Shown one piece after another: positions 37,778-63,093 of a DNA stretch of 64,000 nt. The translations under genes were made by a program, and so were the position numbers. Location: positions 40,703-104,702 of IMG/VR virus record IMGVR_UViG_3300028833_000101. One strand, given 5' to 3'. The notes under the pieces are model-generated. The model ran no database searches, was not told the origin of the DNA, and saw nothing but the letters and a program-made list of their open reading frames with translations. Source of the DNA: a virus. Its lineage: Duplodnaviria > Caudoviricetes. Numbering within the stretch: position 1 is the first letter of the stretch; every line of letters starts with the position of its first letter.

Positions 37778-37806
37778 TTTACAAACTTCTTATTTAGTTG
37801 TATAAT
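37778..37806 (+). promoter_or_regulatory. SigmaA-type early promoter TTTAC(A/T)-N17-TATAAT (one of about 28 in the window)
   Basis: Others near 27509, 38331, 39501, 40078, 41195, 42012, 45644, 47859, 50487, 51347, 52152, 52426, 52848, 53614, 54221, 55305, 56010, 56691, 57279, 58077, 60812, 61316, 61856, 62396, 62753, 63608, 63915. Confidence 0.9.
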
Positions 37807-37825
37807 ATAAATAAAGGATTAAAAT

Positions 37826-38299
37826 ATGAACATTTATATTGCTGCAAGCTTTGCATATGAAGATAAAGCTAAAACCAGTCAAAAGAAAGACTTAATTGAA
37901 AAAACTGTCAAGAGAATTAAGAAGTTTTTAAAAGGCAATTATTACTTACCACATCAATTAAAAATTCCAAATGCTTGGGATATGAGTTTAGAAGAATGGT
38001 CAAAAGCTGTTTATGAGCATGACATGGAAGTACTAGAAAAAGCAGAAGTTGTAATTTTTCTAAGCTTTGGTAAAGAGAACAATGCCGGGTCGGCTTGGGA
38101 AATGGGGTATGTTCATGGGTTTAATCTACATGAACAAGTTCACTTTCAAAAAACAGTTATAGTAATAAAGATGACTGATGAGCCAGAAAGTCTTATGATT
38201 AGTAATTCAGTAGATAGAATTATTATGAGTAATGAAATTGAAACTTATGACTGGAAGACATTTCCAAAATATAAAACAGTTTTAAACAAACTAAGTTAA
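37826..38299 (+). CDS. Nucleoside 2-deoxyribosyltransferase/nucleotide N-hydrolase family
   Basis: IYIAASF...D...AEVVIF...GSAWEMGY motifs. Confidence 0.8.
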   Translation: MNIYIAASFAYEDKAKTSQKKDLIEKTVKRIKKFLKGNYYLPHQLKIPNAWDMSLEEWSKAVYEHDMEVLEKAEVVIFLSFGKENNAGSAWEMGYVHGFNLHEQVHFQKTVIVIKMTDEPESLMISNSVDRIIMSNEIETYDWKTFPKYKTVLNKLS

Positions 38300-38378
38300 G
38301 ATAATTAAATAAAGAAACTTGTAAAAACTATTTACAAGTTTCTTTTTTTGTGGTATAATATAAATGTGAGGTAAAAGT

Positions 38379-38816
38379 ATGGAAACTATTGTTAGAGAAA
38401 AAACAACTTATGGATTTGTTTTATTTGATAAATATATTTTATGTGATATTAAAACATATCCAGCAAATGATGTCAATTTTAGACGCTTAGATGAAATTGA
38501 TAAGAAAAAAGCTAAAATCAGACAATACAATAGTTTAAAAGTTTTAAGAAAAGAAGTACCTGGACATTTACAACAATGGCGTTATTGGTTACCTAAACAT
38601 AAAGAAAGTGAATGGCTTAAAGATAAAGTTGAACCTTGGTGGGACGAAATTTATACTTTAGAATCATTACTAAAAGAAGCTGGCTTTGGTGAAGCCGGTT
38701 TTGGTGGAATTGGTGCTTTAAGCAGCTGGCATGATACTGGCGCTTGGGAGTATTGTATTAAGCACAAGTATTTTAAAATTATTAAGATTAAAGAAAGATT
38801 AATTTTTGAAGAATAA
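38379..38816 (+). CDS. Early hypothetical protein (paralogue of 39121)
   Basis: DKYILC...IRQYNSLKVL; own promoter; all Trp codons are TGG. Confidence 0.75.
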   Translation: METIVREKTTYGFVLFDKYILCDIKTYPANDVNFRRLDEIDKKKAKIRQYNSLKVLRKEVPGHLQQWRYWLPKHKESEWLKDKVEPWWDEIYTLESLLKEAGFGEAGFGGIGALSSWHDTGAWEYCIKHKYFKIIKIKERLIFEE

Positions 38817-38853
38817 GTATTTACAGACAAAAATATTTAGAAAGTAGATTAAT

Positions 38854-39117
38854 ATGAAAATTGAAATAGAAGTTAAATTTAATATTGATGATAAGGTGTT
38901 AGTTAAAAAGCCGCATAGTGGAAGCTATCAAAAACCAGAACCATTTATTGCAGTAATTGGTGGCTATACAATTACTAAAAATAAAAGATCAACTACAGTT
39001 AGATATACCCTGGAGCCACTTATTAATGATGGTTATTATCATTTTAATGCTGGTATCTCTGACTGGAACCGTAAAAAGAAATATAGTGTCAATGAATTAG
39101 AAAAAATTGAGGAATAA
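38854..39117 (+). CDS. Early hypothetical protein (KFNIxDxV, SH3-like)
   Basis: ORF track; IEVKFNIDDKV N-terminus. Confidence 0.65.
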   Translation: MKIEIEVKFNIDDKVLVKKPHSGSYQKPEPFIAVIGGYTITKNKRSTTVRYTLEPLINDGYYHFNAGISDWNRKKKYSVNELEKIEE

Positions 39118-39120
39118 ATT

Positions 39121-39492
39121 ATGAAACATTTGCATAGAGAAGTTATTGGCTATACTGTTATCATTTTAGATAAATATATTTTATGTGGAACTGCTAATAA
39201 TTTACAATGGAAAGATTTAGAAAATTTAGGAAGAGTTAATATTAGGCACTATAAAAGTTTAAAAATTTTACTAAATAATTTATGGTATCATATGACTGAT
39301 TATGGTAGCAACAATTTTAAGTCTATACTAGATGCTGAGTTATCTAAAGCAGGATATTTAAGATACACAGGCTATTATGAAGTTACAGATTATCGTAAAA
39401 AAGAAGCACTTAATTATCTTATTGATGCCGGCTTACTTAAAGTTGTAGAATTACAAGAAAGTATTGACATTGAAAAAGAAGTTAAATTTTAA
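39121..39492 (+). CDS. Early hypothetical protein (paralogue of 38379)
   Basis: DKYILC...IRHYKSLKIL. Confidence 0.7.
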   Translation: MKHLHREVIGYTVIILDKYILCGTANNLQWKDLENLGRVNIRHYKSLKILLNNLWYHMTDYGSNNFKSILDAELSKAGYLRYTGYYEVTDYRKKEALNYLIDAGLLKVVELQESIDIEKEVKF

Positions 39493-39550
39493 TAAAGCTA
39501 TTTACAAATAAAGTAGTTTATGTTATAATAATAATGCGAGGTAAATTAAA

Positions 39551-40069
39551 ATGGAAATTAAACAAATTGATTGGTCAAGAATTAAACCTAGAATTGGCAG
39601 ATGGGTAAGAACAGAAGCCCATGCTGGTCAAGTTAAATACGATTTAGAATCAGACTTAGCTGACCCTTATACTATTACACAATTTACAGTTGACTTTGAA
39701 GATGAAACTGTTTCTACTGGCTGGAGAGAAGAACTTAGTGGACATCAAGAAGAAGTACCATTAACTCCAGAAGAAAACTACGAAGCCAGACAAATGATTT
39801 CTGATTGCAGAATTATTACTGTTAGCTTTACTATTAGACCAGGGTATGAAGACCTCGCTAAAAGACAATCTGAATATATGCTTGATGGCTATGATCTTAT
39901 TAAAGTTACTATGCAGGGCAATACTATTACATTTGAAGGCAATCATCTAAACTTAAGTGATGCTGTAGCTGATGGTCATATTTCAGAATGGGCTAATGAA
40001 GACCCTGAAGTAGAGATTGATGTTGCCTGTGGTATTGATAGAGCTAACGCAGGAAACTGGGATTATTAA
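39551..40069 (+). CDS. Early hypothetical protein
   Basis: Promoter plus GAGGT RBS. Confidence 0.75.
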   Translation: MEIKQIDWSRIKPRIGRWVRTEAHAGQVKYDLESDLADPYTITQFTVDFEDETVSTGWREELSGHQEEVPLTPEENYEARQMISDCRIITVSFTIRPGYEDLAKRQSEYMLDGYDLIKVTMQGNTITFEGNHLNLSDAVADGHISEWANEDPEVEIDVACGIDRANAGNWDY

Positions 40070-40134
40070 AAAAACTATTTACAAATAAAAATATTTGTGA
40101 TATAATATATTTAGAAAGTTGAAGTAAATAAAAT

Positions 40135-40353
40135 ATGAAAAAAATTATTATTGTTTTGGCGAATGACTGCCTTCAAAGAGTCTACTCTGATGAAAAGGTC
40201 GAAATAGAAGTCATTGATCTTGGAGATGTAGATGAAGAGCACCCAACAAGAGTTCAAAAGAAGCAGCTTAAACAACTAGAAAAATTAGAAGAAGACGCTA
40301 GTTTAACTACCAAGTGTTGGTTCTATGATAACAAACCACTTTCTTATAAATAA
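40135..40353 (+). CDS. Early hypothetical protein
   Basis: Promoter; resembles the small ORF at 54605. Confidence 0.65.
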   Translation: MKKIIIVLANDCLQRVYSDEKVEIEVIDLGDVDEEHPTRVQKKQLKQLEKLEEDASLTTKCWFYDNKPLSYK

Positions 40354-40368
40354 CGCGAGGAAATAATT

Positions 40369-41034
40369 ATGGAAAAAGAATATCAAAAAATTGGAAATGT
40401 ATTTAAGTTCGACGAAAAGTTTAGAACTATTGTTGGGCTTAATGAACCATATGAAACATTAAAGAATATTATCTGGCAAGGTACTGAAAAGATTGACGGA
40501 ACTAATATTCGTGTTCATTGGGATGGTCATGACATTGAGTTCGCTGGCCACACTGATAAAGCACAAATCCCACCAAAGCTTCAAGCTTATTTAGAGTCCG
40601 TGTTCAAAGTCCCAGAAATGGAATATATTTTTGAACAAGTCTTTGGTGAACCTGAAGCGTATATCTTTGGTGAAGGTTTTGGTGCTGGAATTCAAAAGTC
40701 TGGCGGAGACTATGTAGAAAACGGAACCGATGTTTCTTTCATTGTCTTTGATGTTCAAATCGATGGTTGGGACCTTGATAGAAAGAACACTACTGATGTT
40801 GCTACTAAACTTGGTTTACCTTCTGTCCCTGTCTGCTTTGAAGGAACTCTTGATGAAGCTAAAGCTTATGTTGCTGAACATCACATGTCTACACTTAATG
40901 GTGGCAAGCATGAAATGGAAGGCTTGGTCTTAGTGCCTCGTGATATTCAACTCTATGACAAGAAACACCATCTTATTAAGTGCAAGTGCAAATACAGAGA
41001 CATGGTTAGAGCTGGTCTTGTAGAGGAAAAATAG
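40369..41034 (+). CDS. RNA ligase (Rnl2-like adenylyltransferase domain)
   Basis: TEKIDGTN (motif I), IFGE, FIVFD, EGLV and C-terminal KxK motifs. Confidence 0.85.
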   Translation: MEKEYQKIGNVFKFDEKFRTIVGLNEPYETLKNIIWQGTEKIDGTNIRVHWDGHDIEFAGHTDKAQIPPKLQAYLESVFKVPEMEYIFEQVFGEPEAYIFGEGFGAGIQKSGGDYVENGTDVSFIVFDVQIDGWDLDRKNTTDVATKLGLPSVPVCFEGTLDEAKAYVAEHHMSTLNGGKHEMEGLVLVPRDIQLYDKKHHLIKCKCKYRDMVRAGLVEEK

Positions 41035-41036
41035 CT

Positions 41037-41165
41037 ATGATAGTTGGAATTATTGCAACTATACTTTTGTTTCTCTTAATTTCTGGTTGTATTATTATTG
41101 GCTTTGCCGATGCTTGTGGAGAAGCAGCTGGTGAAGAAAGTATTTATTCTGGTGGCAAAGAATAA
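41037..41165 (+). CDS. Small membrane peptide
   Basis: GAGG RBS; hydrophobic 42-aa ORF. Confidence 0.5.
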   Translation: MIVGIIATILLFLLISGCIIIGFADACGEAAGEESIYSGGKE

Positions 41166-41245
41166 AAAACTTTAAGAAATTTGTAAAAAAGTATTTACAA
41201 GTTTCTTTTTTTATGTTATAATAATTATAGAAAGTTGGTAAGCTT

Positions 41246-42001
41246 ATGAATAAAGAAACATTTGAAACTATTAAAACAAATCTTGAAGCACGAGTAAATG
41301 AATGTAAAGCACATTTAGACCATATCATCACAACTGATGATTTAAAAACTATTACAGTAGGTGAAGCACAAGAATTAAAAGCTTGGGCAAGTAAAGAAAG
41401 TGCTATTATGACTGAAATAGTTATGGTCGATTTTTATCATATCATTGGTATGGGTGAATTAACAGTTTTACAAACTAATACTTTTATAAAACTTATTAAA
41501 GAATACATGAGTTATCGCTCAGACCTTAAAACTATTGGTGCTCATTTCTCATTAGACAACTTACCAAATCTTCCAAGTATCAGTGAGTTTACATTAAAGC
41601 AACTTGGTAATATTACGCTCACTTCTAAAGTCCGTGGTAGAAATAAAGCTGCCTCTACTTTTATTGAAACAAATACAGTAGGTGACTATGCTAAAGCTTG
41701 CCAAGACCTTGCTAGTAGTATTACTGCTGATGGAGAATGTGGACCATTCAAAATTGAAGACAATACTATTACTTTACCAACTACTTCATTAAATGATTTT
41801 ATTAAAGCTATTAATCCAAATCTTAGCCGAGGCAAAATTACTTCAGCTGCTTCTTATCAAAATAATACTGGAAAAGATTATGCTGATATTTTTTGGCAAT
41901 ATACAAATGAAGAACATAATGAAATTAAAGCTGTTGTCTCACGAAAGAATGGATACTTTACTGGAATTAAAAATAAATTAAAAAATATTTTTGTAAAATA
42001 A
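41246..42001 (+). CDS. Early hypothetical protein
   Basis: ORF with promoter. Confidence 0.75.
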   Translation: MNKETFETIKTNLEARVNECKAHLDHIITTDDLKTITVGEAQELKAWASKESAIMTEIVMVDFYHIIGMGELTVLQTNTFIKLIKEYMSYRSDLKTIGAHFSLDNLPNLPSISEFTLKQLGNITLTSKVRGRNKAASTFIETNTVGDYAKACQDLASSITADGECGPFKIEDNTITLPTTSLNDFIKAINPNLSRGKITSAASYQNNTGKDYADIFWQYTNEEHNEIKAVVSRKNGYFTGIKNKLKNIFVK

Positions 42002-42060
42002 TTAATAATTGTTTACAAATATAATTTTATATGAGATAATATTAATGTGAGGTAAAAAAT

Positions 42061-42321
42061 ATGACTGTAAAAGAATACTTAGAAGTTCATAGTAGTAAAG
42101 ATATTGAATCAATCGGTATTTATTCAGCTACTAAAATTAAGGATGCTTGTGATAGAGATACTGATGTTATTGATACTGATGTTCAACCTGTTGATTTAGT
42201 TAAATATTTAGAAAGAGAAGTTGACCATGTTAGCTTAGGTATCTTTGATGAAACAAGAAAAGCTATTGATGGAACAGACTACAATGCCAAGTTCATTAGA
42301 GCTTGTATTTATGTGAGGTAA
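42061..42321 (+). CDS. Early hypothetical protein
   Basis: Promoter plus GAGGT RBS. Confidence 0.7.
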   Translation: MTVKEYLEVHSSKDIESIGIYSATKIKDACDRDTDVIDTDVQPVDLVKYLEREVDHVSLGIFDETRKAIDGTDYNAKFIRACIYVR

Positions 42322-42326
42322 TAATT

Positions 42327-42815
42327 ATGTTTCCAGATTTATTAGATGCTCTTAGTGAATATAGTAGTTATTATACTAGTGATGTTGATCCAGAAGTTGA
42401 AGATGCTTTTAAAAGTATTCTTAAAAAAGTTTGGCATGAACACGCCACGAAATATATAGATAATACTGGAGATATTACTGGAGAAGCTCGTTCAATCTTA
42501 GAAAAAGCTTTACAATTACTTCACAAAAATAAAAACATTCATCTCAGATTCGATTTGAACTCTGAGAAGTGTAAAATGTATCAAATACAAGACCCAAGAA
42601 AGTTAAGCCCACAAACAATTTTACAATTAGAAGTAAAAGAAGGCTTAGATAAACAGTATATCAAAGCTACTATTAGTAATGAAGCTTTCACCGCTAATTG
42701 GTTACCAACTGATGACTATGCTGGTATTTCAAAAAGAATTAAAGATTTAGATACCATAACTTATCGTGGTATTAGACTTGCTTATATTATTTATCAAGCA
42801 ATTAAAGATAATTAG
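42327..42815 (+). CDS. LRxAY-family protein 10
   Basis: ALQLLHKNKNIHL...RGIRLAYIIY. Confidence 0.72.
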   Translation: MFPDLLDALSEYSSYYTSDVDPEVEDAFKSILKKVWHEHATKYIDNTGDITGEARSILEKALQLLHKNKNIHLRFDLNSEKCKMYQIQDPRKLSPQTILQLEVKEGLDKQYIKATISNEAFTANWLPTDDYAGISKRIKDLDTITYRGIRLAYIIYQAIKDN

Positions 42816-42825
42816 GAGTATGAAT

Positions 42826-43158
42826 ATGTATAAAGTAAAATGTATCGCTGATGGAATGATTGTCTGGAAGGGCACTACTGTCATAGGAATTAAAGGTTTG
42901 ACTTTGCCTGAGATGTTTAATGAATGTGATTGTGTAAAACTTCCAGGAAACGCTTTCGATTATTCACTTTCACCCTCTAATAAATATACAGAAGAACAAC
43001 TTGCTTTTATTAATAAAGCAGAAGCTGAGTGGGCTGAAGATGGTGGTGAAGAAATCGATCATGAGCCTGAGTATGGAATTAAGTATGGCGAAGATGATGA
43101 CGTCCCACTAATGGATTTATTTGGCCAAAGCATTCCAGACGATGACTTGCCGTTTTAG
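42826..43158 (+). CDS. Hypothetical protein with SSB-like acidic DDDLPF tail
   Basis: AGGAG RBS; ends IPDDDLPF. Confidence 0.65.
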   Translation: MYKVKCIADGMIVWKGTTVIGIKGLTLPEMFNECDCVKLPGNAFDYSLSPSNKYTEEQLAFINKAEAEWAEDGGEEIDHEPEYGIKYGEDDDVPLMDLFGQSIPDDDLPF

Positions 43159-43175
43159 CTTCAAAAGGTGAGAGA

Positions 43176-43403
43176 ATGAAAATAACAACTAATGAACAAC
43201 CTTTAATCATAGACTTAGAAAAAAATGAAACATTAACTATATCAAGTACAATAGTAATGATAAAGCATGTTTTTGATTTATCTTTGTACAAAACCGTCAG
43301 ACTAAAAGTTTACAATAATATATTTATAGTTGAAGCTGAGAACAAAAATAATGGCAGTAAATTAATCAGGGCTTTTTCTGATACTTGGGGGTTTTCTATT
43401 TAA
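43176..43403 (+). CDS. Hypothetical protein
   Basis: AAGGTGAG RBS. Confidence 0.55.
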   Translation: MKITTNEQPLIIDLEKNETLTISSTIVMIKHVFDLSLYKTVRLKVYNNIFIVEAENKNNGSKLIRAFSDTWGFSI

Positions 43404-43603
43404 TGAAAAATAAAGAAATAGTAAAAGCATTAAAGGGAAGTTGGAAAGACAAACCAGTAGAAGTTCTCGTTAAAATTGAGGGCGGACTATACTATCCAAT
43501 TAAAGAAATAGTCAAAAACAAGGATGGTACTTTTACTATTATAGGCAGAAACTTAACTGAGCATTCCGTCATAGGGCCTGCCAAATGGTATAAGAATAAA
43601 TAG
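43403..43603 (+). CDS. Hypothetical protein
   Basis: TAATG coupling to the upstream gene. Confidence 0.6.
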   Translation: MKNKEIVKALKGSWKDKPVEVLVKIEGGLYYPIKEIVKNKDGTFTIIGRNLTEHSVIGPAKWYKNK

Positions 43604-43787
43604 AGCTTCTGCCAAAATACACTCATAGTAGGACAAAAAGTTTAAGACTTCTGTCAAAAGCAGAAGTTTTTTATTTCTTTGTTTGTAAATCTTTGTCACT
43701 TTTGTCACTCAAATGTCACTCAAATAAAAGACTTGACAAAAAGTTGAAATTCAATTTTTTGGCAAATAATTTGCTAAATTATACAGA

Positions 43788-44216
43788 ATGAACAAAGATT
43801 ACAACCAAGAAAGATTTGACTTATTAGAAACTTTGAAGACAGATGTTGCCAGAATGATCAGACTTAAAGACCTGCCGGCAACCTGCCATTCTTTAACTGC
43901 AATTAGTGGAAGAGATGGTAGAACGGAGCTAGTATTGGAACTATTCGTCGACATATTAAATACAGAGAAAATCGCCCGAGTTTACTTATACATTACAGAG
44001 GACATTTTTGACCCAGATGGCTTTGAGTTTATAAATAGTGACATAGGTCTTGGAAATAAAAAAGTAGACACAAAAACCTTCATTAAACTTAGAGCCCTCA
44101 GAACAGTATACAATGTAATAAAAAACGTAAGCACTGGATATGCAAATGCAGTCGACCCAAATAAAATAATATATGTCAGAACACAAAAAACAGGTGTCTG
44201 TGATTATAGGAATTAA
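43788..44216 (+). CDS. LRxAY-family protein 11 (divergent)
   Basis: VARMIRLKDL...FIKLRALRTVY; directly after GCTAAATTA. Confidence 0.65.
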   Translation: MNKDYNQERFDLLETLKTDVARMIRLKDLPATCHSLTAISGRDGRTELVLELFVDILNTEKIARVYLYITEDIFDPDGFEFINSDIGLGNKKVDTKTFIKLRALRTVYNVIKNVSTGYANAVDPNKIIYVRTQKTGVCDYRN

Positions 44217-44220
44217 TAGT

Positions 44221-44601
44221 ATGAGTTACCCATATAGACCACAAAAAGAATGAGACATAATAAATATAGTCAAGAAAGCAATCAGGACCTTAAATAAGAA
44301 AAAAGGGACTACTTTAAAGATGGCCAATATTAGCTTTGGTCAAGGTGTGGACAGCAAGTATGGTTCAGGACAATTAGATACCACAATAAGTTTAGTAGTG
44401 CAGGAAACAATAAGTAAAAGAATAATGAAGCTATTCTGATATGAAAGCTTCTTTAATCCTGACTTGCCTGATGATAAAGACGAAGTTTCAGGAGTAAATA
44501 AAGTAAGTAATCCAGGAGACAAAGTATTGCTTAGAGTTGCTTACTGCATTTGGTTTGGCAGACACTGGATGTCAGCGCCACAAAAGAAAAATAAAAAATA
44601 A
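44221..44601 (+). CDS. LRxAY-family protein 12 (missed by the ORF track; 2 TGA)
   Basis: AIRTLNKKKGTTL...KVLLRVAYCIW. Confidence 0.72.
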
Positions 44602-44611
44602 TGGTGATAAT

Positions 44612-44977
44612 ATGGAAATAAATAGTAAATATTCTACACTTATTACTTCAGCTTGTGAAAGGGTACAAAGAGTTAAAGGAATTAATGTTTTTCTTTCTAG
44701 TATAGAATTTTATGGTGTTCATAAATACTCGCATGACAATGTATATAAGATAAATCTTATAACCGATAATGGACTCCTTACTATCTATCAAGAAGAAGAA
44801 AACTTTAAGTATTGGGCTGATGTCCCATGGTCTGGCTTGGAAGAGTTTAGACCAGCAGACTTTGATAGCTGATCAGAATATAAGAAGTTAATGCTTGCTT
44901 GGTGCTGGGCAATTTATAAATACTGTAAAGACTGGGGAGACTACCAAAATACAACGCCACCACCAATTGAAGAATAA
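44612..44977 (+). CDS. LRxAY-family protein 13 (divergent; 1 TGA)
   Basis: ACERVQRVKGINV...KLMLAWCWAIY. Confidence 0.65.
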
Positions 44978-45197
44978 ATTAAAAGGTATCTTAGAGATAT
45001 CTTTTTTATAACTCTTAAAAAATAATCTGCTAAATTATACTGAGAAAAAGCTAAGGCAATTGCTATTGGCTTCTTTTTTAATAATTTAATAAAAAACATT
45101 TGCTATAATTAATTGAAGGTTGTTAAAAAGGCCGAAATAGGTTTTTGGTCAAATATCCTTCTTTTTTTATACTCTTTTGCGCCGTATAATATAATGT

Positions 45198-45623
45198 ATG
45201 AATTTTAATATTATAGACCAAGCAATAAAATTAGTAAGAGATAAATTCAAGATAGATTTTACAGTCAGCCAGTATACAATACAGACGGACCCAGAAGACA
45301 TAACAATTGGCGGAGTTGCCCATCACATCTATAGAGAGCCAGAGCTTAGGATGAGTATCACTGTAGTAAAAGGTCGTAATTCTTGGACCAGCTATACAGA
45401 CTTAGATTATGTGATATTCGGAAGCGACCTACGAGATGGAAGCTTGATAGATGAAATCATCGGTGGAAATATCAAAGGTTATGAATTAGACATGAGACAA
45501 GCTCTGAGACTCGCCTTCATCATATATAATGGAATCCAGTATGGCGTAAGCGGAGAGATGAAAAAAGATTATATAGACAAAGGCTGGCATCCAAGAGTAG
45601 TAAGTTCAAGAATGAGGTATTAA
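45198..45623 (+). CDS. LRxAY-family protein 14
   Basis: AIKLVRDKFKIDF...QALRLAFIIY. Confidence 0.7.
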   Translation: MNFNIIDQAIKLVRDKFKIDFTVSQYTIQTDPEDITIGGVAHHIYREPELRMSITVVKGRNSWTSYTDLDYVIFGSDLRDGSLIDEIIGGNIKGYELDMRQALRLAFIIYNGIQYGVSGEMKKDYIDKGWHPRVVSSRMRY

Positions 45624-45679
45624 AAAATATCTCATTTTTTTATTTACTTTTAAAGGCAACTATGGTATAATATAAATGT

Positions 45680-54778: not shown

Positions 54779-54791
54779 GAGGTAAGAAAAA

Positions 54792-55034: not shown

Positions 55035-55290
55035 GATTTATATTGTAGTAGATGCTTGTAGCGGTGAAGATTATAGCACTGATGATCCAACCATTCTTTG
55101 TGTGGATACTAATGAAGAACGTGCAAAAGATTTCTTTGAGGAAGAAATTGAAAACTGGGAAGACGGAATGACTAACTTCGATTCCAATACCACAGAGCAT
55201 TATGGTGAAACCAAGTTAGTTTATGAATGCACTGACTATGAAGGTGACTCACATAGAGTAATGAAATTAGTTGAAAAAGAAATTCAATAA
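55027..55290 (+). CDS. Early acidic hypothetical protein
   Basis: ORF track. Confidence 0.7.
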   Translation: MTKIYIVVDACSGEDYSTDDPTILCVDTNEERAKDFFEEEIENWEDGMTNFDSNTTEHYGETKLVYECTDYEGDSHRVMKLVEKEIQ

Positions 55291-55361
55291 AAATTAAAAA
55301 AGGGTTTACAAAAAGCCCTTTTTATGTTATAATATATGTAGAGTAAAGAGAGGTAAAAAGA

Positions 55362-55994
55362 ATGGGACAATATTATTATCCAACAATCCTTAGGGAAAAG
55401 AATAAAAGATTTTATAGTGAGGAATTTTTTTCTCATGATTATCACAACGGCTTGAAACTAACAGAACATAGTTATTGTGGAAATAACTTTGTTGAAACTG
55501 TTATGGCACAACTATTTAATAAACCTGGTCGACTTGCATGGCTTGGCGACTATCATGAGAAAGGTGACTTTGCTAAGTTAAACTCAGATTTGCCAGACAT
55601 TTTAGAAAAAAGATTTTATGAACACTACAAGTGTTTTGTTACACCGGGTTGTGAAGAAGACTGTAAAGGTAAGCATTTAAGATACTATAATAAGCCAGAA
55701 GAAATAACAGAAAGAAAAGGTAGATTTATTATTAACCATGACAAACACTGTTATATTGATATGGTAGAATATGAAAAGAATAACTTATCTTGTTCTGAAG
55801 ATGACGATTGGAAATTCCATCCAATTCCACTATTAACCGCAGTTGGCAACGGTCGTGGTGGAGGAGACTTCTCTGGTATCGGTGAAGAAGATATTGGTTG
55901 CTGGGCTGGAGATTTACTTGAAGTGCAATGTGCTAGACCAAATGGCTATCGAGATGTAACAGCAGACATTAACTTCCAAGAGAGTTATTGCTAA
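55362..55994 (+). CDS. Phage hypothetical protein (MGQYY...LKLTEHSY...HPIPLLT...GxWAGD)
   Basis: Promoter plus RBS; motif set I recognise from uncharacterised phage proteins. Confidence 0.75.
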   Translation: MGQYYYPTILREKNKRFYSEEFFSHDYHNGLKLTEHSYCGNNFVETVMAQLFNKPGRLAWLGDYHEKGDFAKLNSDLPDILEKRFYEHYKCFVTPGCEEDCKGKHLRYYNKPEEITERKGRFIINHDKHCYIDMVEYEKNNLSCSEDDDWKFHPIPLLTAVGNGRGGGDFSGIGEEDIGCWAGDLLEVQCARPNGYRDVTADINFQESYC

Positions 55995-56064
55995 AAAACA
56001 AAAAAGGTGTTTACAAACATCTTTTTTTGTGTTATAATATTAGTAGAGAGTTGAGGTAATTACT

Positions 56065-56514
56065 ATGAACAAAAAGAATATTGTTACAAAAGAAAACATT
56101 GCTAAAGTTGCTGATTGGTTAAAGACAGCTTGTGATGACTTTGCAAATAATGATGCAAGTGGTTGCTATAATTTCCCACTATCTGATGATTTAGTATTAG
56201 CAGTTGGTTGGTCTGACGGCTATGATATGGCCGATACTGATATTATTAAATCTAAAGAAGGCCAAAGACAACATGGTTCTTGGGTTTGCGGTTGGGCAGT
56301 AAATGCAGCAGTTAAAGTTAGAAATGACTTCGATTGTGCTGACTTCGATATGTTAAACTATCCTTGCTATAATGATGGCGAATGTTGGGACAGTGGAATT
56401 TCTATGAAACCAAATCAAACTCGTAGAGAGTATCGTAGAGACGCTCGTTGGTTCTTAGAAACATTTGTGTCTATGACAAATGCTCACAAGAGAGGTGAAA
56501 TTAGTTATGAGTAA
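56065..56514 (+). CDS. Early hypothetical protein
   Basis: Promoter plus RBS. Confidence 0.75.
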   Translation: MNKKNIVTKENIAKVADWLKTACDDFANNDASGCYNFPLSDDLVLAVGWSDGYDMADTDIIKSKEGQRQHGSWVCGWAVNAAVKVRNDFDCADFDMLNYPCYNDGECWDSGISMKPNQTRREYRRDARWFLETFVSMTNAHKRGEISYE

Positions 56515-56677
56515 AGAAGAGACATATACAATTATTGTTCATTTTTCTGGACATGAAGATCAAGTTCGACATGGTGTTGATAAATTAAATGCTAGTATAA
56601 TTCCCGCTGAATTCGAAATAGCATTCCCAAAAGAATTCAAGAGTGGAAAGATGAGTATTGAAGTAATTAAAGAATAA
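56507..56677 (+). CDS. Small early protein
   Basis: GAGGTG RBS. Confidence 0.55.
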   Translation: MSKEETYTIIVHFSGHEDQVRHGVDKLNASIIPAEFEIAFPKEFKSGKMSIEVIKE

Positions 56678-56737
56678 ATTAAATAACCCGTTTACAGAAG
56701 CGGGTTTTTGTGTTATAATAATAATGAGGAAAATAAT

Positions 56738-57274
56738 ATGATTAAATTAAAACAAGTTAGTCCTGAAAATGTTTGGTATGAATTCGAAGACGAAGTTGAC
56801 TTTGATCAATACAAAGATAAAATGGTTATCACTGGGAATAGAGACTTCAAGTCTATCGGTGATGATACTTTAATCAGTGTTGTTAAAGGCGATTACTATG
56901 ATGAAGATCAAACTTTAGTCGAGAATCCTGATGGTAGTTGCTACGAAGATACTATCGGATATGACTACGAAACAGCAGAAGAATTAGCAAAGCTTTCTGG
57001 TAAGAAAAACTGGGTGGAAGGCGACTTCCGCGGATACTCACAAGGCGATTGGCAAACTATCTGGTTCGTTAAAGATGAAGTTACTCAAGATGAAATTAAA
57101 TACATGGAAAACTTCTACATGGGCAAGATGAGTGAATTTCATGATGAAGATATGTGTTGCTACTATGTGCCCGATGATGTAGTATGGAAAGGCAAGAAAG
57201 AAATTTGTGACTACCTTGGGCTCAACCCCGATGACACAGAGATTTATGATGAAAATGAAAATTTAGTTGAATAA
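56738..57274 (+). CDS. Early hypothetical protein (RGYSQGDW motif)
   Basis: Promoter plus GAGG RBS. Confidence 0.75.
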   Translation: MIKLKQVSPENVWYEFEDEVDFDQYKDKMVITGNRDFKSIGDDTLISVVKGDYYDEDQTLVENPDGSCYEDTIGYDYETAEELAKLSGKKNWVEGDFRGYSQGDWQTIWFVKDEVTQDEIKYMENFYMGKMSEFHDEDMCCYYVPDDVVWKGKKEICDYLGLNPDDTEIYDENENLVE

Positions 57275-57330
57275 ACTATTTACATTTTCTATTTTTCGTG
57301 TTATAATATATTTGAAGAGAGGTAAGAAGT

Positions 57331-57735
57331 ATGGGCTTTAATAAAATTAGAACCATTAGAGTTAGCGAAAGAGTATTTGATATTGTCTGTGAGGCTTTAG
57401 ATAATGAGGCAACAGAAAATTATGTTAAAATTTCCGGATACTTAGAATGCTTTAACAATTGCAGAGAACAAGGTTATGTCCTTCATGTTGATTCAGTTGA
57501 TTGGGACAATCCTAATAAAACTAAAAAAGATTTATGTGTTTGGGCTTTTGAAGCAAGAAGTTCAGATGAGATCGTCGTAAGTTGGCAAACTGAATATCCA
57601 CACAACGGAATGTTCAGCGAAGAAACTTATAAAGAACGCAGAAAATATTTCCATTATGATGAACTTCAAAAAGCAGCAGACTTTATTATCGATTTAGTTA
57701 AAGAACATTTTGCCAATGAATTCAGAGGTGAATAA
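57331..57735 (+). CDS. Early hypothetical protein (NCREQGY motif)
   Basis: Promoter plus RBS. Confidence 0.75.
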   Translation: MGFNKIRTIRVSERVFDIVCEALDNEATENYVKISGYLECFNNCREQGYVLHVDSVDWDNPNKTKKDLCVWAFEARSSDEIVVSWQTEYPHNGMFSEETYKERRKYFHYDELQKAADFIIDLVKEHFANEFRGE

Positions 57736-57736
57736 T

Positions 57737-58072
57737 ATGAAAGACGAATTTGACGAATTATTAGAAGAATTAAATTTAGAAAACTTTGGTGAAGACTTCG
57801 ATGTTAAGCCAGCTATATATCAAGTGTGGATGTTAGGCTACAATGAAGATGAAGCTATTACTGATTATGAAGTAATGGTTAATGAATCTAAAGACGCCGA
57901 ATATGCAGTGGAATATGCTAAGAAATTCGTAGAAGAAAAACGTTATGAGTCTTCAGCGCCATTCCCAGAAGATGTTGCTTACATCGAAATATTAGTCGAG
58001 ACTGTTGTGGATTTTGAAGATCACACAGAAAATGTCGGAACTTTATTTACAACAACTGTAAAAGTGAAATAA
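57737..58072 (+). CDS. Early acidic hypothetical protein
   Basis: GAGGTG RBS. Confidence 0.7.
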   Translation: MKDEFDELLEELNLENFGEDFDVKPAIYQVWMLGYNEDEAITDYEVMVNESKDAEYAVEYAKKFVEEKRYESSAPFPEDVAYIEILVETVVDFEDHTENVGTLFTTTVKVK

Positions 58073-58130
58073 ACTATTTACAAATTAATTTTTACATGTT
58101 ATAATATAAATGACAATGGAGGACTGATTT

Positions 58131-58415
58131 ATGGTAAAGTCAAAACATTTAGGAAAGAAATTTGGTCGCTGGACTGTTACAAGAATTAGCAGAGAACGTG
58201 ATGGACACTATCGTTTCTATTTAACTAGAAAGACAAGCGATGGCGCAATTAAGACTGTTGGTTTAACAAATGTTACAATGGCAAGATTAGCTCGTGGTGA
58301 AACTAGCATCACAACTTTGTTAAAGAACAAACAATTCCAAAGAAACAAATTCCCAAGCAGATCTTATAGAAACTCTGTTTGGTATACTTACAACACAAAC
58401 GGTAGCTTAGAATAA
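58131..58415 (+). CDS. Basic early protein (GKKFGRWTV motif; possibly DNA-binding)
   Basis: GGAGG RBS; N-terminus resembles the G..FGR.TV motif of HNH/AP2-associated domains. Confidence 0.65.
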   Translation: MVKSKHLGKKFGRWTVTRISRERDGHYRFYLTRKTSDGAIKTVGLTNVTMARLARGETSITTLLKNKQFQRNKFPSRSYRNSVWYTYNTNGSLE

Positions 58416-58443
58416 CTATCGGTATCGAAAGGAGGAAGTTGCT

Positions 58444-59343
58444 GTGGCAAGTCAAACATTTAACAACTTCAAGAATTACGCAAATCAATTAGAGAAAGAA
58501 CTTGGTATTAAATATGATGCTAAGCCTTATAAAGATACTATCAGGGTTATGCTTGATGGTTTTTGCAAAGCAATGGATGAAGGCGATGAACATCTTAAGA
58601 ACTTATATATCAGTGGTTTAATCTTACGTCATTGGGATAAAGTAAAGAAACTTGCAGATAGTTGCCCTGGCATCGATCTTAAAGGCGAAGAGTTCGTCGA
58701 CTGGGTTTACGAAGCAATTATGCTTGCTTGTGAATATCGTAAATGGCAAAAAGACGAAAGTGTCAATGCTCAACAATGTATCAATCAATGTATTGAAACT
58801 ATCAGGGTTAGACACTACTATGAATATAACTTAGACAAACACAAAGCGAACTACAATACTGTCTCTTTAGAAACCCCTGTTGGCGATGGAGACGATAATG
58901 GTGTTCAAAAAACTTTGATGGATACTATGCATGATGAGAATGCGGAAGAAGCTGCTAGAGTAGCAGAAAGTAATAACGCTGCTCGACACATCGTTCAGAT
59001 GTTTATCAACAAAAACAGAATTGTCGAAGCAATTATCATGGACATCATTGCTTTTGGTGATACTGAAAAAATTACTAAACACATTAAACGTGGCATTGAC
59101 GAAAATGGTGAGGCTTACAAGTATATAACTTACACACGTGAGTTCTGGAAGTTCAAAGCAGTCCAACTTCTTTCAAACTTGCCAGAAGACTACCAACAAT
59201 ACTTCCTTGAAAACTATTTAGTTAATACAGCAGCATTAGATGCAGCTTTAAACGTGCTTAGAAAGGCCAATAACAACAAATTATACCGTGAGTTAGATAA
59301 AAGCCTATCTGCAGCAAAAGTAATCCTACAAGCGTCTATGTGA
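58444..59343 (+). CDS. Putative phage-encoded sigma70-family factor
   Basis: LILRHWDKVKKLA...EEFVDWVYEAIMLA (region 2-like); TVSLETPVGDGDD (region 3-like); AAAGGAGG + GTG. Confidence 0.6.
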   Translation: MASQTFNNFKNYANQLEKELGIKYDAKPYKDTIRVMLDGFCKAMDEGDEHLKNLYISGLILRHWDKVKKLADSCPGIDLKGEEFVDWVYEAIMLACEYRKWQKDESVNAQQCINQCIETIRVRHYYEYNLDKHKANYNTVSLETPVGDGDDNGVQKTLMDTMHDENAEEAARVAESNNAARHIVQMFINKNRIVEAIIMDIIAFGDTEKITKHIKRGIDENGEAYKYITYTREFWKFKAVQLLSNLPEDYQQYFLENYLVNTAALDAALNVLRKANNNKLYRELDKSLSAAKVILQASM

Positions 59344-59422
59344 GCTGAAAATAATAATTAAAATAAAACAACCTTCCAAATTGGGAGGTTTTCATGTTGT
59401 ATAATAAAGTGAGGATTTGATT

Positions 59423-60151
59423 ATGTGGTTAGATATAATGAGCCAGTATAATACACTTCAAGTAAATATCAAATTGGCAAATTTACTTGGGTTAGAAGTT
59501 GCTACTTATTGGGCGGCATTGATGGATGTGTATGCGAGAGTAGTGAATAAATATAAAGATGAGTTAGAAGCGAATTCAGGATATTTTGAACTCGACAGAG
59601 ACTATATTACTAAGAGAACGACATTACAGTTAGACAAACAGTTAGAGATCGATGCAGGACTCGGTAAACTTGGTGTGCTACAACATCGTAGCGAAAACGA
59701 ACTGAATTGGATCACACTAGATGTAGAAAAGCTTTGTGCGATCTTAGTAGATGACAGTATCGATGCAATCAGAGATGTTCAACGCGTTTCTAAACTTAGA
59801 CGAGAAGATACCGCTCGTGCCAAGAAAGCATCGGTTAGAATTAACTTAGTCGCAGCACTAAAAGAAACTGATCCAGATGTGCTTACTGCTTACAATAACT
59901 GGATCGATGCACTGTTAGAAGCTAAGAAGCCGATTACTAGACAAGCTTTGGATATATACCAGAATAACTTAAACAATTATACTGATAATAAACAAGCGAA
60001 AATTAAAATTCTTGAGATTGCGACAACAAATGCTTACACTGAATTTGCATGGTCTATGAAGATTTACGAAAAAGATTATCGTGGCAATGGAACATTTATT
60101 GGTGTAAAGCAAAATAGAACTAGCGGAATTGATCCGAATTCAGGTTTTTAG
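59423..60151 (+). CDS. Putative replication initiator/replisome organiser (winged helix N-terminus)
   Basis: VNIKLANLLGLEVATY...GYFELDRDYITKRTTL...Q...L...GVL pattern. Confidence 0.6.
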   Translation: MWLDIMSQYNTLQVNIKLANLLGLEVATYWAALMDVYARVVNKYKDELEANSGYFELDRDYITKRTTLQLDKQLEIDAGLGKLGVLQHRSENELNWITLDVEKLCAILVDDSIDAIRDVQRVSKLRREDTARAKKASVRINLVAALKETDPDVLTAYNNWIDALLEAKKPITRQALDIYQNNLNNYTDNKQAKIKILEIATTNAYTEFAWSMKIYEKDYRGNGTFIGVKQNRTSGIDPNSGF

Positions 60152-60163
60152 GAGAAATTTAGT

Positions 60164-60457
60164 ATGAATGAATTTATAGCAAGACGATCATTAGAAGAAG
60201 ATGCACTTCTAGAATATATTTCGAAAGCAAGAGTGCTAGATGATCTGTATCATCGAACAGGTGAGTTAGAAGAAACTATTGAAGCGATGGATAAAAACAT
60301 CGACGATGTTGAGGAAACTGGTTTAGATGAAATTGTAGAAGCGATGTGCAAAGCTCGCAATGCACTAAATTTAGAAAGACTTGACCTCGAAATTCAAATT
60401 CACAAGTTAGAACTTTGGTTGGCAGAATTTGAAAGGATAAGACAAATAACCCGATAA
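60164..60457 (+). CDS. Coiled-coil hypothetical protein
   Basis: AGGAG RBS. Confidence 0.7.
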   Translation: MNEFIARRSLEEDALLEYISKARVLDDLYHRTGELEETIEAMDKNIDDVEETGLDEIVEAMCKARNALNLERLDLEIQIHKLELWLAEFERIRQITR

Positions 60458-60499
60458 ATTCGGGTTTTTATTTACGAATTTAGTGTGGTTAGCGGAGCA

Positions 60500-60790
60500 G
60501 TCTAGCGTGATGATCAGGTAACTGATCTGTAACATGTGACTGTAACTTGTACGATGATCTGTAACTGATCTGTAAAATTTGTACGGTCTAGTGAAATCCG
60601 CACCGGCATCCTGACACACTAAACAGATGAATCAGGATACTGATCAGGCTTTCTAGTGCGATGTACAGTAACAGATACAGTAACCAGTGCGATGTATAGT
60701 GACAGACAGTAACGATACAGTACTGTGTAACTGGATTTAGATTCACTAGAACTTGAAAACAGGTTGATTTCGTGCATGTGTATGTGCGTT
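60500..60790. repeat. Short degenerate tandem repeats (tgatctgtaac / gatacagtaac)
   Basis: tgatctgtaa x3, then the complementary-sense acagtaac x4. Confidence 0.65.
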
Positions 60791-60866
60791 TCTTTTTAAT
60801 TAAAAAAAGTATTTACAAATCTTTAGTATTGTGATATAATATATATAGAGAGTGAGGAAAGTTATT

Positions 60867-61070
60867 ATGAAACCTATGACAGTTAAAAGATTAAAAGAAC
60901 TTTGTGAAGAACAAATTAAAAAAGGTAATGGAGATAAGATTGTTGTCCTAAGTAATGACGATGAAGGTAATGGTTATCACGAATGTTATTACGAGTTTAC
61001 CGAAGACGTTGCTGGTAATGATTTATGGGGAAGTATTGAAAACCCACAAAGTAAAATAATTCTTGGTTAG
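60867..61070 (+). CDS. Early hypothetical protein (SNDDEGNGY motif)
   Basis: Promoter plus RBS. Confidence 0.7.
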   Translation: MKPMTVKRLKELCEEQIKKGNGDKIVVLSNDDEGNGYHECYYEFTEDVAGNDLWGSIENPQSKIILG

Positions 61071-61082
61071 GAGGAACTAATA

Positions 61083-61286
61083 ATGACAAGAGAAGAAAAA
61101 TATAAGTTAATCGAATTACTCGAAAAACTTAGAGACGAAAGAATCTTAGAAGTTGCGAAAGACTACGACTTAACCGAAAGAGAAGTCCGTGAAAAGTTAT
61201 GTAGAGAACCTGAAGAAGTCTATGAGATGGATGATGGTGATAACTTACTTAACGGTATTGACATTGTGTTAGGTGTCTTAGAATAA
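61083..61286 (+). CDS. Early hypothetical protein
   Basis: AGGAGG RBS. Confidence 0.7.
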   Translation: MTREEKYKLIELLEKLRDERILEVAKDYDLTEREVREKLCREPEEVYEMDDGDNLLNGIDIVLGVLE

Positions 61287-61372
61287 AAAAGTTTAAAGTA
61301 GACGTAAAAAAACGTTTACTTTTTCTTTTAAACGTGATATAATATTTATAGAATAAAGAGAGGTAAAAAACA

Positions 61373-61825
61373 ATGCAAGGACCAAAAGAAAAATATAATG
61401 CTGAAAAAGTATTAGAAAGATTAGAAGCAATGATTGAAAGAGGTTGCTCAAGAGAGATTAGACAAGTCTATGATGAACTATCAATCTTCGACTGGTGGCC
61501 AGAAAGATTAACTATCACTCACATGAAACAAATGAGATCCTTCTTGAGAGAAGCAATCAAGTTAGGTTATACTGGTTATGTTTGCTTTAAAGTCGGTGCT
61601 TCTGGTTGCGCTAATGGAATGTGGGCACACAAAGAAGAAGGTAAGGTAGAAGGTAAAGACGTCTACTCACCAGATGGCGATGCTATCTACAGAAGTTTTA
61701 CACCTGATTATACTTATTGGTCATTCAATAAGAACGGTAAGTGGCTTCCAGATGGTGATACTCGTGGAACATATGACTCACTCAAAACTGCAAAGATGCT
61801 TGAAGAAGCACTTGCAAATGCCTAA
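61373..61825 (+). CDS. Early hypothetical protein
   Basis: Promoter plus RBS. Confidence 0.75.
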   Translation: MQGPKEKYNAEKVLERLEAMIERGCSREIRQVYDELSIFDWWPERLTITHMKQMRSFLREAIKLGYTGYVCFKVGASGCANGMWAHKEEGKVEGKDVYSPDGDAIYRSFTPDYTYWSFNKNGKWLPDGDTRGTYDSLKTAKMLEEALANA

Positions 61826-61903
61826 ATAAAAAAACTAAAAAGAGGTAAAAAACTATTTACTTCTTTTTTATTTTGTGGTATAATATATGTAGAGGATGAG
61901 GAT

Positions 61904-62056
61904 ATGAGATACAACGTTAAAATTAAATTAAATAAAGATACTATCTACGAAGTTGAAGTTGAAGCTGATAATGAAAAAGATGCAATGTGCTTCGCTTATG
62001 ATCAAATGGAAATGGATACTTACGCAGAACCAACTATGATTACGGAGGCTAAATAA
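61904..62056 (+). CDS. Small early protein (VEVEADNEKDA motif)
   Basis: Promoter plus GAGG RBS; 50 aa. Confidence 0.55.
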   Translation: MRYNVKIKLNKDTIYEVEVEADNEKDAMCFAYDQMEMDTYAEPTMITEAK

Positions 62057-62057
62057 A

Positions 62058-62378
62058 ATGAAAGCAAAAAACTATAATCAAGTATTGAGAGCTCGTGGTT
62101 ATAAAGCGAGAGAGCTTAGCGAGTATGAAGGAATTTGTATTTACGAGAAAGTTCATAAGTTTAACAAGATAGTTTGCTATGTTAAAAAAGACTCACATGG
62201 CAAAGGTCAAGAAATGACTTTCAATATCTATGGAACTATGACTACACCAAAAGATATGGTTGAGTTCAAAGAGCAAGAGTTTGATAGAAGTTATCTTGCT
62301 AAAGAAGCAAATGCAATTCACGATGCTTTTGAAAAACTAAAAGAATTAAAAGCCCCTAAACATTTATATTGTTTCTAA
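62058..62378 (+). CDS. Early hypothetical protein
   Basis: GGAGG RBS. Confidence 0.7.
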   Translation: MKAKNYNQVLRARGYKARELSEYEGICIYEKVHKFNKIVCYVKKDSHGKGQEMTFNIYGTMTTPKDMVEFKEQEFDRSYLAKEANAIHDAFEKLKELKAPKHLYCF

Positions 62379-62447
62379 AAAATTACATTAGCCCATTTAC
62401 AAAGTGGGCTTTTTGTGTTATAATATATATGTAAAGAGGATAAGAAT

Positions 62448-62744
62448 ATGAACTATAAAATTAAACAAATTAAAGACTTAGAAAATTGTGACTATGCTTT
62501 CGAGCACTACGATTGGTGCAAAGATAAGATCAACTTGAACGACTATGAAGTTGTATATGAAGGCACAGTATCAGAAGAAAATGCTTCTAAAGGCGATAAC
62601 TATGCTCTTGAAATGTTGTTCACAAAGTTCAATATTGCTCATCCAGAAGACTATAGAGGACACAGCTTATCAGTTTCTGATATTGTAGAACTTGATGGCA
62701 AGAACTACTACTGCGATGCATTTGGCTGGGTCGAATTAAAATAA
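62448..62744 (+). CDS. YodL-like domain protein
   Basis: DYEVVYEG...LEMLFTKFNIAHPEDYRGHSLSVSDIV...YYCDAFGW. Confidence 0.85.
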   Translation: MNYKIKQIKDLENCDYAFEHYDWCKDKINLNDYEVVYEGTVSEENASKGDNYALEMLFTKFNIAHPEDYRGHSLSVSDIVELDGKNYYCDAFGWVELK

Positions 62745-62814
62745 AAAAAGTATTTACAAATTAAATAAATAGTGTTATAATATAAATGTAAAGAATAAGA
62801 GGTAAATATATTAT

Positions 62815-63093
62815 ATGTCTAAAATTGTTAATCTTACAAAAGTTCAAGGTTGTTATTCAAAAGAATTAAGAGAAGCAACTTATGGAATTAAGTTATGCTT
62901 AAGAGAACCATCTGTTTCACTTCAAGATATGAAGAATTATGTTGAAGCAGTTATTGACCCAGCAAGTATTGATGCTGAGGCTAAAAAGAGATTTAGAAAA
63001 AACCTAAGCGAATGTAAAACAAAACAAGAAGTTGACCAACTATGTTATGATGCAGTTGTTCACGGAATGTATTATCGTAGAAAAGAAAGTTAA
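62815..63093 (+). CDS. Early hypothetical protein
   Basis: Promoter plus RBS. Confidence 0.7.
   Translation: MSKIVNLTKVQGCYSKELREATYGIKLCLREPSVSLQDMKNYVEAVIDPASIDAEAKKRFRKNLSECKTKQEVDQLCYDAVVHGMYYRRKES

Follow-up and report, generated by a model that had tools for sequence, protein, structure and literature searches.

Block-wise dual coding was reportedly described by Yutin et al. in 2021 in crAss-like phages, whose late blocks have TAG or TGA reassigned, and the study of recoded phages by Borges et al. is said to have appeared later in Nature Microbiology (2022). Dual coding in blocks is also attributed to crAss-like phages in the Mgcod preprint (10.1101/2022.06.29.495998). In the preprint of Borges et al. 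(bioRxiv 10.1101/2021.08.26.457843), phage early genes are kept in the standard code and the code changes in mid-infection; recoded structural and lysis modules are spread over large genomes, TGA stops are scarce, and close relatives use the standard code. The TGA-recoded Jade phages of Firmicutes carry a module of tryptophanyl-tRNA synthetase (TrpRS), release factor RF1 and tRNA upstream of lysis genes, and a tRNA with the anticodon UCA, tRNA(UCA), is seen in only 35% of code-4 phage genomes. The same preprint puts forward the idea of a lysis timer and an evolutionary route in which recoding follows the establishment of transcription classes; promoters are never mentioned in its text (0 occurrences). 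According to PMC13401047, host sigma A serves the early promoters of SPO1 and other large virulent Bacillota phages, and phage sigma factors serve the middle and late ones. The DNA considered here is a stretch of 64,000 nucleotides (nt) from a tailed phage (IMG/VR record IMGVR_UViG_3300028833_000101, record positions 40,703 to 104,702; the window). Its genes behind sigma70-type promoters write tryptophan as TGG, while genes behind a second motif, GCTAAATTA, write it as TGG or TGA. A code switch during infection, with the code following promoter class and the decoding kit encoded in the half of the genome missing from the record, is considered the likely explanation.

Gene starts were curated before codons were counted; several apparent early TGAs fall in the ribosome-binding site 5' of the true ATG (e.g., 38364 and 58110). 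The 44 curated early genes (17.6 kb, 37826-63366) contain a single in-frame TGA, probably a stop, against 95 TGG, and they end in TAA (34) or TAG (10). The 64 late genes of the whole contig (75.9 kb), in contrast, contain 137 TGA and 154 TGG, so that 47% of their tryptophan codons are TGA (Fisher p = 1.4e-20). An initial annotation of the window, made from sequence alone, had claimed that genes behind TTTACA-N17-TATAAT promoters use only TGG for tryptophan and that genes behind the late motif need TGA for it, and had suggested a contingency test by promoter class. The counts bear out both claims, except that gene 38379-38816, credited with about eight TGG, has seven. The early lack of TGA is an effect of reading frame rather than of composition, since TGA is plentiful in the other two frames of the early genes (98 and 398 instances); off-frame TGA is common in the late set too. 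Under the standard code, the early open reading frames (ORFs; 33 + 13 = 46) end at most twice in TGA, each time with TAA or TAG no more than 8 codons further on. ORFs of at least 150 amino acids (aa) cover 0.71 of the late block under the standard code and 0.91 under code 4.

The split extends to particular genes named in the initial annotation. Gene 7096-7980 holds four TGA, the operon of a zinc-ribbon gene and a helicase has TGA at 48326 and 48772, and an operon behind the late motif but inside the early region (43788-44977) has three, at 44251, 44437 and 44870; the 35 residues beyond the last of these are tryptophan-rich and protein-like. Even members of one paralogue family are divided: LRxAY genes at 42327 and 45680 have no TGA, and nine copies behind the late motif (44221, 44612 and seven from the cluster at 23397-26712) have one to five each. 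About 15 small paralogues share the LRxAY-like C-terminal helix, in a late cluster (23397-27287) and an early cluster (42327-46834), and no known family was found for them.

By the evidence of alignments, TGA is a tryptophan codon in the late genes. Tryptophan is the majority residue of standard-code relatives at 10 of the 16 alignable TGA sites. Residue by residue in those relatives, it stands opposite TGA in 183 of 259 cases, much as it stands opposite TGG in 437 of 588. The TGA at 48772 in the helicase aligns with a tryptophan in the helicase of a recoded relative (G004), whose own gene has a TGA opposite a tryptophan of the window. Relatives improve in coding density from 0.55-0.82 to 0.86-0.97 when read in code 4, and hardly at all when read in code 15.

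These relatives come from a scan of IMG/VR for the capsid protein, which gave 66 related loci, seven of them on records of 201-233 kb; the five long records that were checked are rated 91-100% complete. Capsid identity within the clade is 57-93%. Some members, at GC 0.29-0.35, regain their coding density only under code 4, and others, at GC 0.33-0.50, are fully open under code 11; the standard-code sister phages have capsid identities of 72-80%. A megablast of 8 kb against 50,697 GenBank phage records gave no match. The window makes up the final 64 kb of one viral record, which is 104,702 bp long and rated 46% complete by CheckV. Its GC is 0.29-0.37, and nearly every gene lies on the + strand. 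PHROGs and Pfam matches in the late block include terminase, portal, head protease, major capsid protein, head-tail adaptor, tail sheath and baseplate hub, along with long tail fibres with endosialidase-chaperone ends and two BspA-type leucine-rich-repeat proteins. Judging from these matches, the phage is a contractile-tailed jumbo phage with a genome of about 220-230 kb, more than half of it absent from the record, because the related capsid loci sit on near-complete records of 201-233 kb.

Three classes of promoter can be distinguished by sequence. The exact early promoter, TTTACA-N16-18-TATAAT, occurs 21 times in the window, always on the + strand, against 0.32 expected. Twenty of these lie within 37778-63943, where about 30 intergenic copies are found once one mismatch is allowed. 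Most have an extended -10 element (TGnTATAAT) and are followed by a strong ribosome-binding site of GAGG type. The late motif, GCTAAATTA, has 10 matches in the window against 2.05 expected. Eight are intergenic, at 8037 (8037-8045, + strand), 18808, 23289, 23371, 27711, 43773, 45029 and 63370; with seven further sites upstream of the window there are 15 intergenic copies in the whole contig. The motif follows a T-rich lead-in, is itself followed by wwtGA, and stands 15-60 nt 5' of gene starts. It is kept at the same positions in recoded and in standard-code relatives, including one of 50% GC. A third motif, TTGTATAAT, has T-rich surroundings, lacks a -35 box and precedes many genes of G004, a complete relative; in the window it precedes a glycosyltransferase gene (36754-37731) and the genes at 59417 and 63150. 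It marks an intermediate promoter class.

The use of TGA is graded along the same series. In G004, the first gene after a sigma70-type motif has in sum 3 TGA and 49 TGG, the first after TTGTATAAT 10 and 59, and the first after GCTAAATTA 86 and 27 (early versus late, p = 2e-25), and overall the TGA share of tryptophan codons is about 0%, about 15% and 50-75% by class. The helicase operon of the window, with two TGA and five TGG, fits the middle tier. The early regions of two other relatives are likewise nearly free of TGA. Within the late class, terminase and portal are about half TGA, and the major capsid gene is free of it both here and in the recoded relatives examined, which together have 0 TGA and 49 TGG.

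What could read UGA as tryptophan is found in the recoded relatives. G004 (223 kb, bounded by direct terminal repeats) has a 75-nt tRNA with anticodon UCA at 11081-11155. In its anticodon arm it differs from the tRNA-Trp(CCA) of the phages at position 34 alone, it has G73 as discriminator, and TTGTATAAT stands 5 nt 5' of it; a gene for TrpRS is present as well. TTGACG...TATAAT upstream of this tRNA was tried as a normal sigma70 promoter and rejected for its 21-nt spacing; the site is now classed with TTGTATAAT. In a second recoded relative, G001 (232 kb), trpS (324 bits) adjoins prfA (RF1, 467-472 bits). Neither gene contains TGA, TTGTATAAT stands at the start of the operon, and directly 3' of the operon come a GCTAAATTA motif and a gene containing TGA. 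A third, G003, encodes a Trp-like tRNA(UCA) of 96 nt that includes an extra arm (L089:1498-1593). Neither RF1 nor TrpRS was found in a standard-code relative (G002). The initial annotation had postulated a suppressor system in this phage itself; that part has its counterpart in these recoded relatives, while the contig lacks one.

Some tRNA(UCA) of this kind are at home elsewhere. Trp-like tRNA(UCA) of 93-97 nt occur on many IMG/VR contigs of 100-230 kb, usually beside tRNA-Trp(CCA). Their extra arm measures about 22 nt, and its loop, with UCCAAA, resembles a tryptophan anticodon loop; further loci are L126-L129, L133-L135, L137, L138 and L140. The pattern of a Trp-like tRNA(UCA) was met on 24 IMG/VR contigs, two of which share a sample with the nearest relatives by capsid. 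Such contigs were considered as the missing half of the genome, but the five tested do not carry the capsid gene of this phage and are judged 70-100% complete at 104-136 kb, and so belong to another clade.

The initial annotation had also held that the host reads UGA as stop, and the support for this, though indirect, comes from four sides: the purge of TGA from early genes, a conserved TGA stop, the standard-code sister phages, and RF2 in candidate host bins. The stop is that of an early gene at 58444-59343, with TGA at 59341-59343 and a TAA at 59359-59361. The gene has 203 homologues; most of the 120 listed are 299 aa, and the TGA falls exactly at the C-terminus of the family. TAA follows five codons on here and three codons on in a relative (L162), and the intervening tail is unconserved (AENNN here, VAD in L162, AKNKC in P0014, with TAA next here and in L162). 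The homologue in G004 ends near the same position, in TAA or TAG. A TGA stop at a conserved C-terminus with TAA as back-up speaks for a host in which UGA means stop. After a code switch, the product would gain a tail of six residues. The annotation had named a second TGA stop, at 51733; the stop at 59341-59343 is well supported and the one at 51731-51733 is plausible only. In the early regions of relatives, 2-5 of 49 ORFs end in TGA, five of seven with TAA or TAG no more than 8 codons on. Of six bins that hold related capsid genes, five are labelled Bacillota, and RF2 (prfB) is full in four of the five bins tested; the fifth, labelled only Bacilli, has a partial one. The early promoters and ribosome-binding sites are of Gram-positive type, to judge by the extended -10 elements, and there is a YodL-like gene among the early genes. 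Together, these signals, the YodL-like gene, the bins with RF2, the standard-code sisters and the conserved TGA stop make it most likely that the host belongs to the Bacillota and uses the standard code.

The same early gene is of interest for what it may encode. An AlphaFold2 model of its product has a mean predicted local distance difference test score (pLDDT) of 76. All 50 of the 50 best rows of a VIA-align search are sigma factors, at Z scores of 7-8.7, in a range (below 13) that can be generic for helical folds. Residues 1-130 superimpose on sigma domain 2 with a root-mean-square deviation of 3.1 Å over 107 residues, and sigma chains also head the Foldseek list, at E 0.04 or worse. Searches with Pfam Sigma70_r2 and Sigma70_r4_2, NCBIfam sigma70-ECF and an RNA polymerase beta domain gave nothing above cut-off in the contig and four relatives, and phmmer gave E 1.8. 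The gene, the only sigma-like candidate, is free of internal TGA, and so is the aligned part of its homologue in G004; a sigma gene rich in TGA is thus not seen here. On the strength of the model, the product is probably a divergent sigma factor, and it serves as a moderate-confidence lead to the factor that would redirect the host polymerase.

From the codon partition, the reading of TGA, the motifs with their conservation and the kit of the relatives, which are matters of observation, we infer the timing, the host, and the kit of this phage. At the start of infection, host RNA polymerase with its housekeeping sigma would fire the roughly 30 consensus promoters of the form TTTACA-N17-TGnTATAAT. 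Early genes, lacking sense UGA, would be fully translated in an unmodified host, where RF2 stops at UGA. The gene at 58444-59343 would probably supply a phage sigma factor, and promoters of the TTGTATAAT class, which in the relatives drive Trp-like tRNA(UCA), TrpRS and RF1, would drive the same kit here from the missing half. Genes behind GCTAAATTA would yield complete proteins only after UGA has come to be read as tryptophan. In low-GC lineages, genes whose translation comes later than the decoder would then have drifted from TGG to TGA, except those for the most abundant proteins of the virion. The code would follow the promoter class, then, because a gene can or cannot afford UGA according to when it is expressed. 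The promoter classes appear older than recoding, because GCTAAATTA stands at the same places in standard-code relatives. The order suggested by this comparison of genomes is that the transcription classes were in place before recoding, which then took hold across the late class in low-GC lineages, the route that Borges et al. proposed.

Perhaps the transcription cascade and the code switch are even wired in series, from host sigma to the sigma-like factor, thence to the TTGTATAAT kit and replication, and finally to the GCTAAATTA genes. This is offered tentatively, and as a whole it is rather improbable. It would make the TGA share of each class a record of when its genes are translated relative to the build-up of the decoder, and the capsid gene would be TGA-free owing to suppression being rate-limiting.

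Several observations weigh against the code switch as set out above. No tRNA was found in the window or the whole contig (ARAGORN, and Rfam at the gathering threshold on the whole contig), the contig being 46% complete, nor in the non-coding stretch 46700-48400 (Rfam, E up to 1), and no TrpRS or release factor in the 104.7 kb (46% of the genome). With the kit absent from the contig, the mechanism proposed for this phage rests on relatives of 57-76% capsid identity. One of them, G001, is recoded and judged complete, and a search that allowed introns found no tRNA(UCA) in it, which agrees with the published figure that such a tRNA is seen in only 35% of code-4 phage genomes. The TTGTATAAT site before the tRNA of G004 has no -35 box at normal spacing, TTGACG lying 21 nt off. 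The promoter rule runs one way only, as 24 of the 64 late genes are free of TGA, and the nearest promoter-like site to the TGA-containing helicase operon is a weak sigma70-like one (48175) rather than GCTAAATTA. The labels early, middle and late are drawn from motif type and gene function. The links of phage to bin come from binning only.

The alternative that survives best is that TGA was actively selected as a translational lock, placed in late, lysis or regulator genes against premature expression or expression forced by the host, over and above the timing given by transcription. The initial annotation had likewise seen in the suppressor a gate on later genes. A gate exists in effect, since a late mRNA with in-frame UGA gives no full-length protein before the decoder is made; selection of it as a timer is another matter. 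Some small late genes do use TGA only (24968-25312 with five, 30757-31269 with five and 26063-26374 with four, and no TGG), late genes vary in their use of TGA beyond a single rate (p ~4e-4), and in G001 a TGA-containing late-motif operon comes directly after the TrpRS-RF1 operon, much as lysis genes come after the published Jade module. That heterogeneity, however, is largely due to capsid and protease avoiding TGA. TGA lies along the late genes much as TGG does, with no 5' bias (Mann-Whitney p = 0.12), and the two interchange at orthologous tryptophan sites of recoded relatives, 73 sites being shared TGA and 125 mixed. Moreover, the late genes are already gated by promoter class, which standard-code relatives also have, and family searches identified no lysis gene here; the small late genes at 22464-27287 gave no family match and no identifiable lysis gene or cassette. 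The even spread of TGA, its exchange with TGG, the TGA-free capsid gene and the late motif in standard-code relatives fit better with tolerated drift and avoidance of a costly codon than with design, and a selected lock is judged doubtful.

Far less probable is that the host itself uses code 4 and has no RF2, the lack of TGA in early genes then reflecting codon optimization for fast translation or recent acquisition. The low GC (29-37%) would suit such a host, as would a contig with no suppressor, a complete recoded G001 with no tRNA(UCA), and the bin labelled only Bacilli with its partial RF2. A decoding kit in recoded relatives, missing from the standard-code one, would be pointless in such a host, though, and 1 TGA against 95 TGG in 44 genes at 33% GC, repeated in the early regions of two other relatives, would be hard to account for, as would an early gene that stops at TGA at a conserved C-terminus, the standard-code sister phages, and full RF2 in four of five candidate bins. 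An assembly chimera of a code-4 phage fragment with a standard-code one, to which the sharp boundary at 36703-37778 and the want of overlap evidence to hand for the contig might point, can safely be set aside because the classes interleave (TGA-bearing late-motif operons inside the early region at 43773 and 63370; sigma70-type or TTGTATAAT motifs inside the late block at 27509 and 36713), one paralogue family spans both blocks, and G004, bounded by terminal repeats, has the same interleaved blocks and motifs, with both blocks syntenic.

A switch of code between classes of genes, the likely reading here, is no new principle; it was published in 2021-22 for phages of gut and rumen. This phage resembles those of Borges et al. 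in its low GC, in structural modules with TGA as tryptophan spread across about 200 kb, in early genes that can be read in the standard code, in rare TGA stops, in close standard-code relatives, in a TrpRS and RF1 that the relatives encode in the standard code just upstream of a recoded operon, and in the prediction of a Firmicutes-type host. The Jade clade, likened by description only, matches in genome size, host type and the relatives' TrpRS-RF1 module. What differs is that the partition is mapped here onto three promoter classes defined by sequence and that the late motif predates recoding. The crAss-like phages also join a standard-code block and a recoded block in one genome, with late genes recoded, but the phage considered here is a contractile-tailed jumbo phage outside Crassvirales, its sigma70 and Shine-Dalgarno signals are of host type and not of Bacteroidota type, and its recoded and standard units interleave at the scale of operons. 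With SPO1 it shares a large set of early promoters close to the host consensus, later motifs of other kinds, the absence of a detected phage RNA polymerase (by the beta-domain search) and a probable phage sigma among early genes, whose likeness to the SPO1 factors would be one of role, with no sequence relationship known here; it differs in its motifs, GCTAAATTA and TTGTATAAT, and in that the classes differ in genetic code too.

The additions to what was known are small: the mapping onto three promoter classes, the graded use of TGA, the TGA-free major capsid gene, and the late motif in standard-code sisters. Nonetheless, this is a very clean natural example, as promoter motifs suffice to tell the classes apart and the same paralogue family occurs in both. 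Standard-code sisters with the same late promoter make it possible to argue the order of events, promoter classes and then recoding. The three motifs, the probable early sigma, the UGA stop with its back-up and a ribosomal protein gene behind a late promoter offer experimental handles on the timing of the switch. There is a warning for annotation as well, in that a single genetic code per contig will miscall one half or the other.

The units of the window follow one another on the + strand. The late block of virion, tail-fibre and BspA leucine-rich-repeat genes, with TGA as tryptophan, occupies 1-36703 and runs on for 40.7 kb upstream to the start of the contig. It is followed by a family-2 glycosyltransferase unit (36713-37731; Pfam PF00535) that has its own TTGTATAAT at 36713 and contains no TGA and six TGG. 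The first early block (37778-43603) has 13 genes with no in-frame TGA and 32 TGG, ending nine times in TAA and four times in TAG; its seven sigma70-type promoters are exact at 37778, 38331, 39501, 40078 and 41194 and have one mismatch at 39464 and 42012. The late-motif operon inside the early region (43773-44977) consists of three LRxAY genes (43788-44216, 44221-44601 and 44612-44977), and after it come two TGA-free genes of the same paralogue family behind early promoters (45166-46834; genes 45198-45623 and 45680-46834). The operon of the zinc-ribbon protein and the SNF2-type helicase (Pfam SNF2-rel_dom and Helicase_C), at 48242-50349, is assigned to the intermediate, replication-type class. 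The main early block (50487-63366) has about 20 sigma70-type promoters and about 33 genes with no sense TGA and 58 TGG, whose stops are TAA (25), TAG (6) and TGA (2). One of the last two is the possible stop of a small gene at 51539-51733, which has its next in-frame TAG 8 codons on and whose stop region overlaps the start of the following gene; the other belongs to the 299-aa candidate sigma gene.

The early region closes with a late unit (63370-63593), in which GCTAAATTA precedes a gene for a homologue of ribosomal protein bS21 (63405-63593; Pfam PF01165, 53.7 bits where the cut-off is 27). The protein has 62 aa and a TTG start. By way of bS21, the phage may alter ribosomes late in infection.

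Three places in the early region have unusual arrangements. From 46835 to 48240 there are 1.4 kb without a convincing ORF, containing GC-rich palindromes of the type GTGTGCGC...GCGCACAC, a hairpin with a 17-bp stem at 47767-47808, and repeated words like cagggcgatttcaa. A perfect sigma70 promoter at 47859 fires into a hairpin of a G-run and a T-run, and a like arrangement lies 5' of the helicase operon of G004 (138.6-139.6 kb). The stretch could be a replication origin or encode small RNAs. The gene at 51382-51558 begins 6 nt past the -10 box of the promoter at 51347, without a ribosome-binding site, and its protein is conserved in G004; by its layout, the mRNA is probably leaderless. At 63609-63915, a near-perfect early promoter (spacer of 16 nt) stands before some 270 nt that contain no credible ORF but repeat the words CTACAGATC and GATCTGTA, and this stretch may encode a small RNA.

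Curious elements turned up in the relatives as well. A tRNA-like element of 61 nt without an anticodon arm (Rfam tRNA, 40 bits) was found at L102:886-1079 (G001:206885-207078), and about 60 nt downstream of it is a match to the c-di-GMP-I-GGC riboswitch, at 45 bits below the gathering score of 59. Beside the tRNA-Lys of G001 lies a non-canonical tRNA-like gene of 82 nt (G001:99212-99293) with a 6-nt anticodon loop (ATTAGA), called Stop or Leu by ARAGORN at a relaxed threshold only. In G004, a single giant ORF at about 50-70 kb has about 100 in-frame TGA and 39 TGG.

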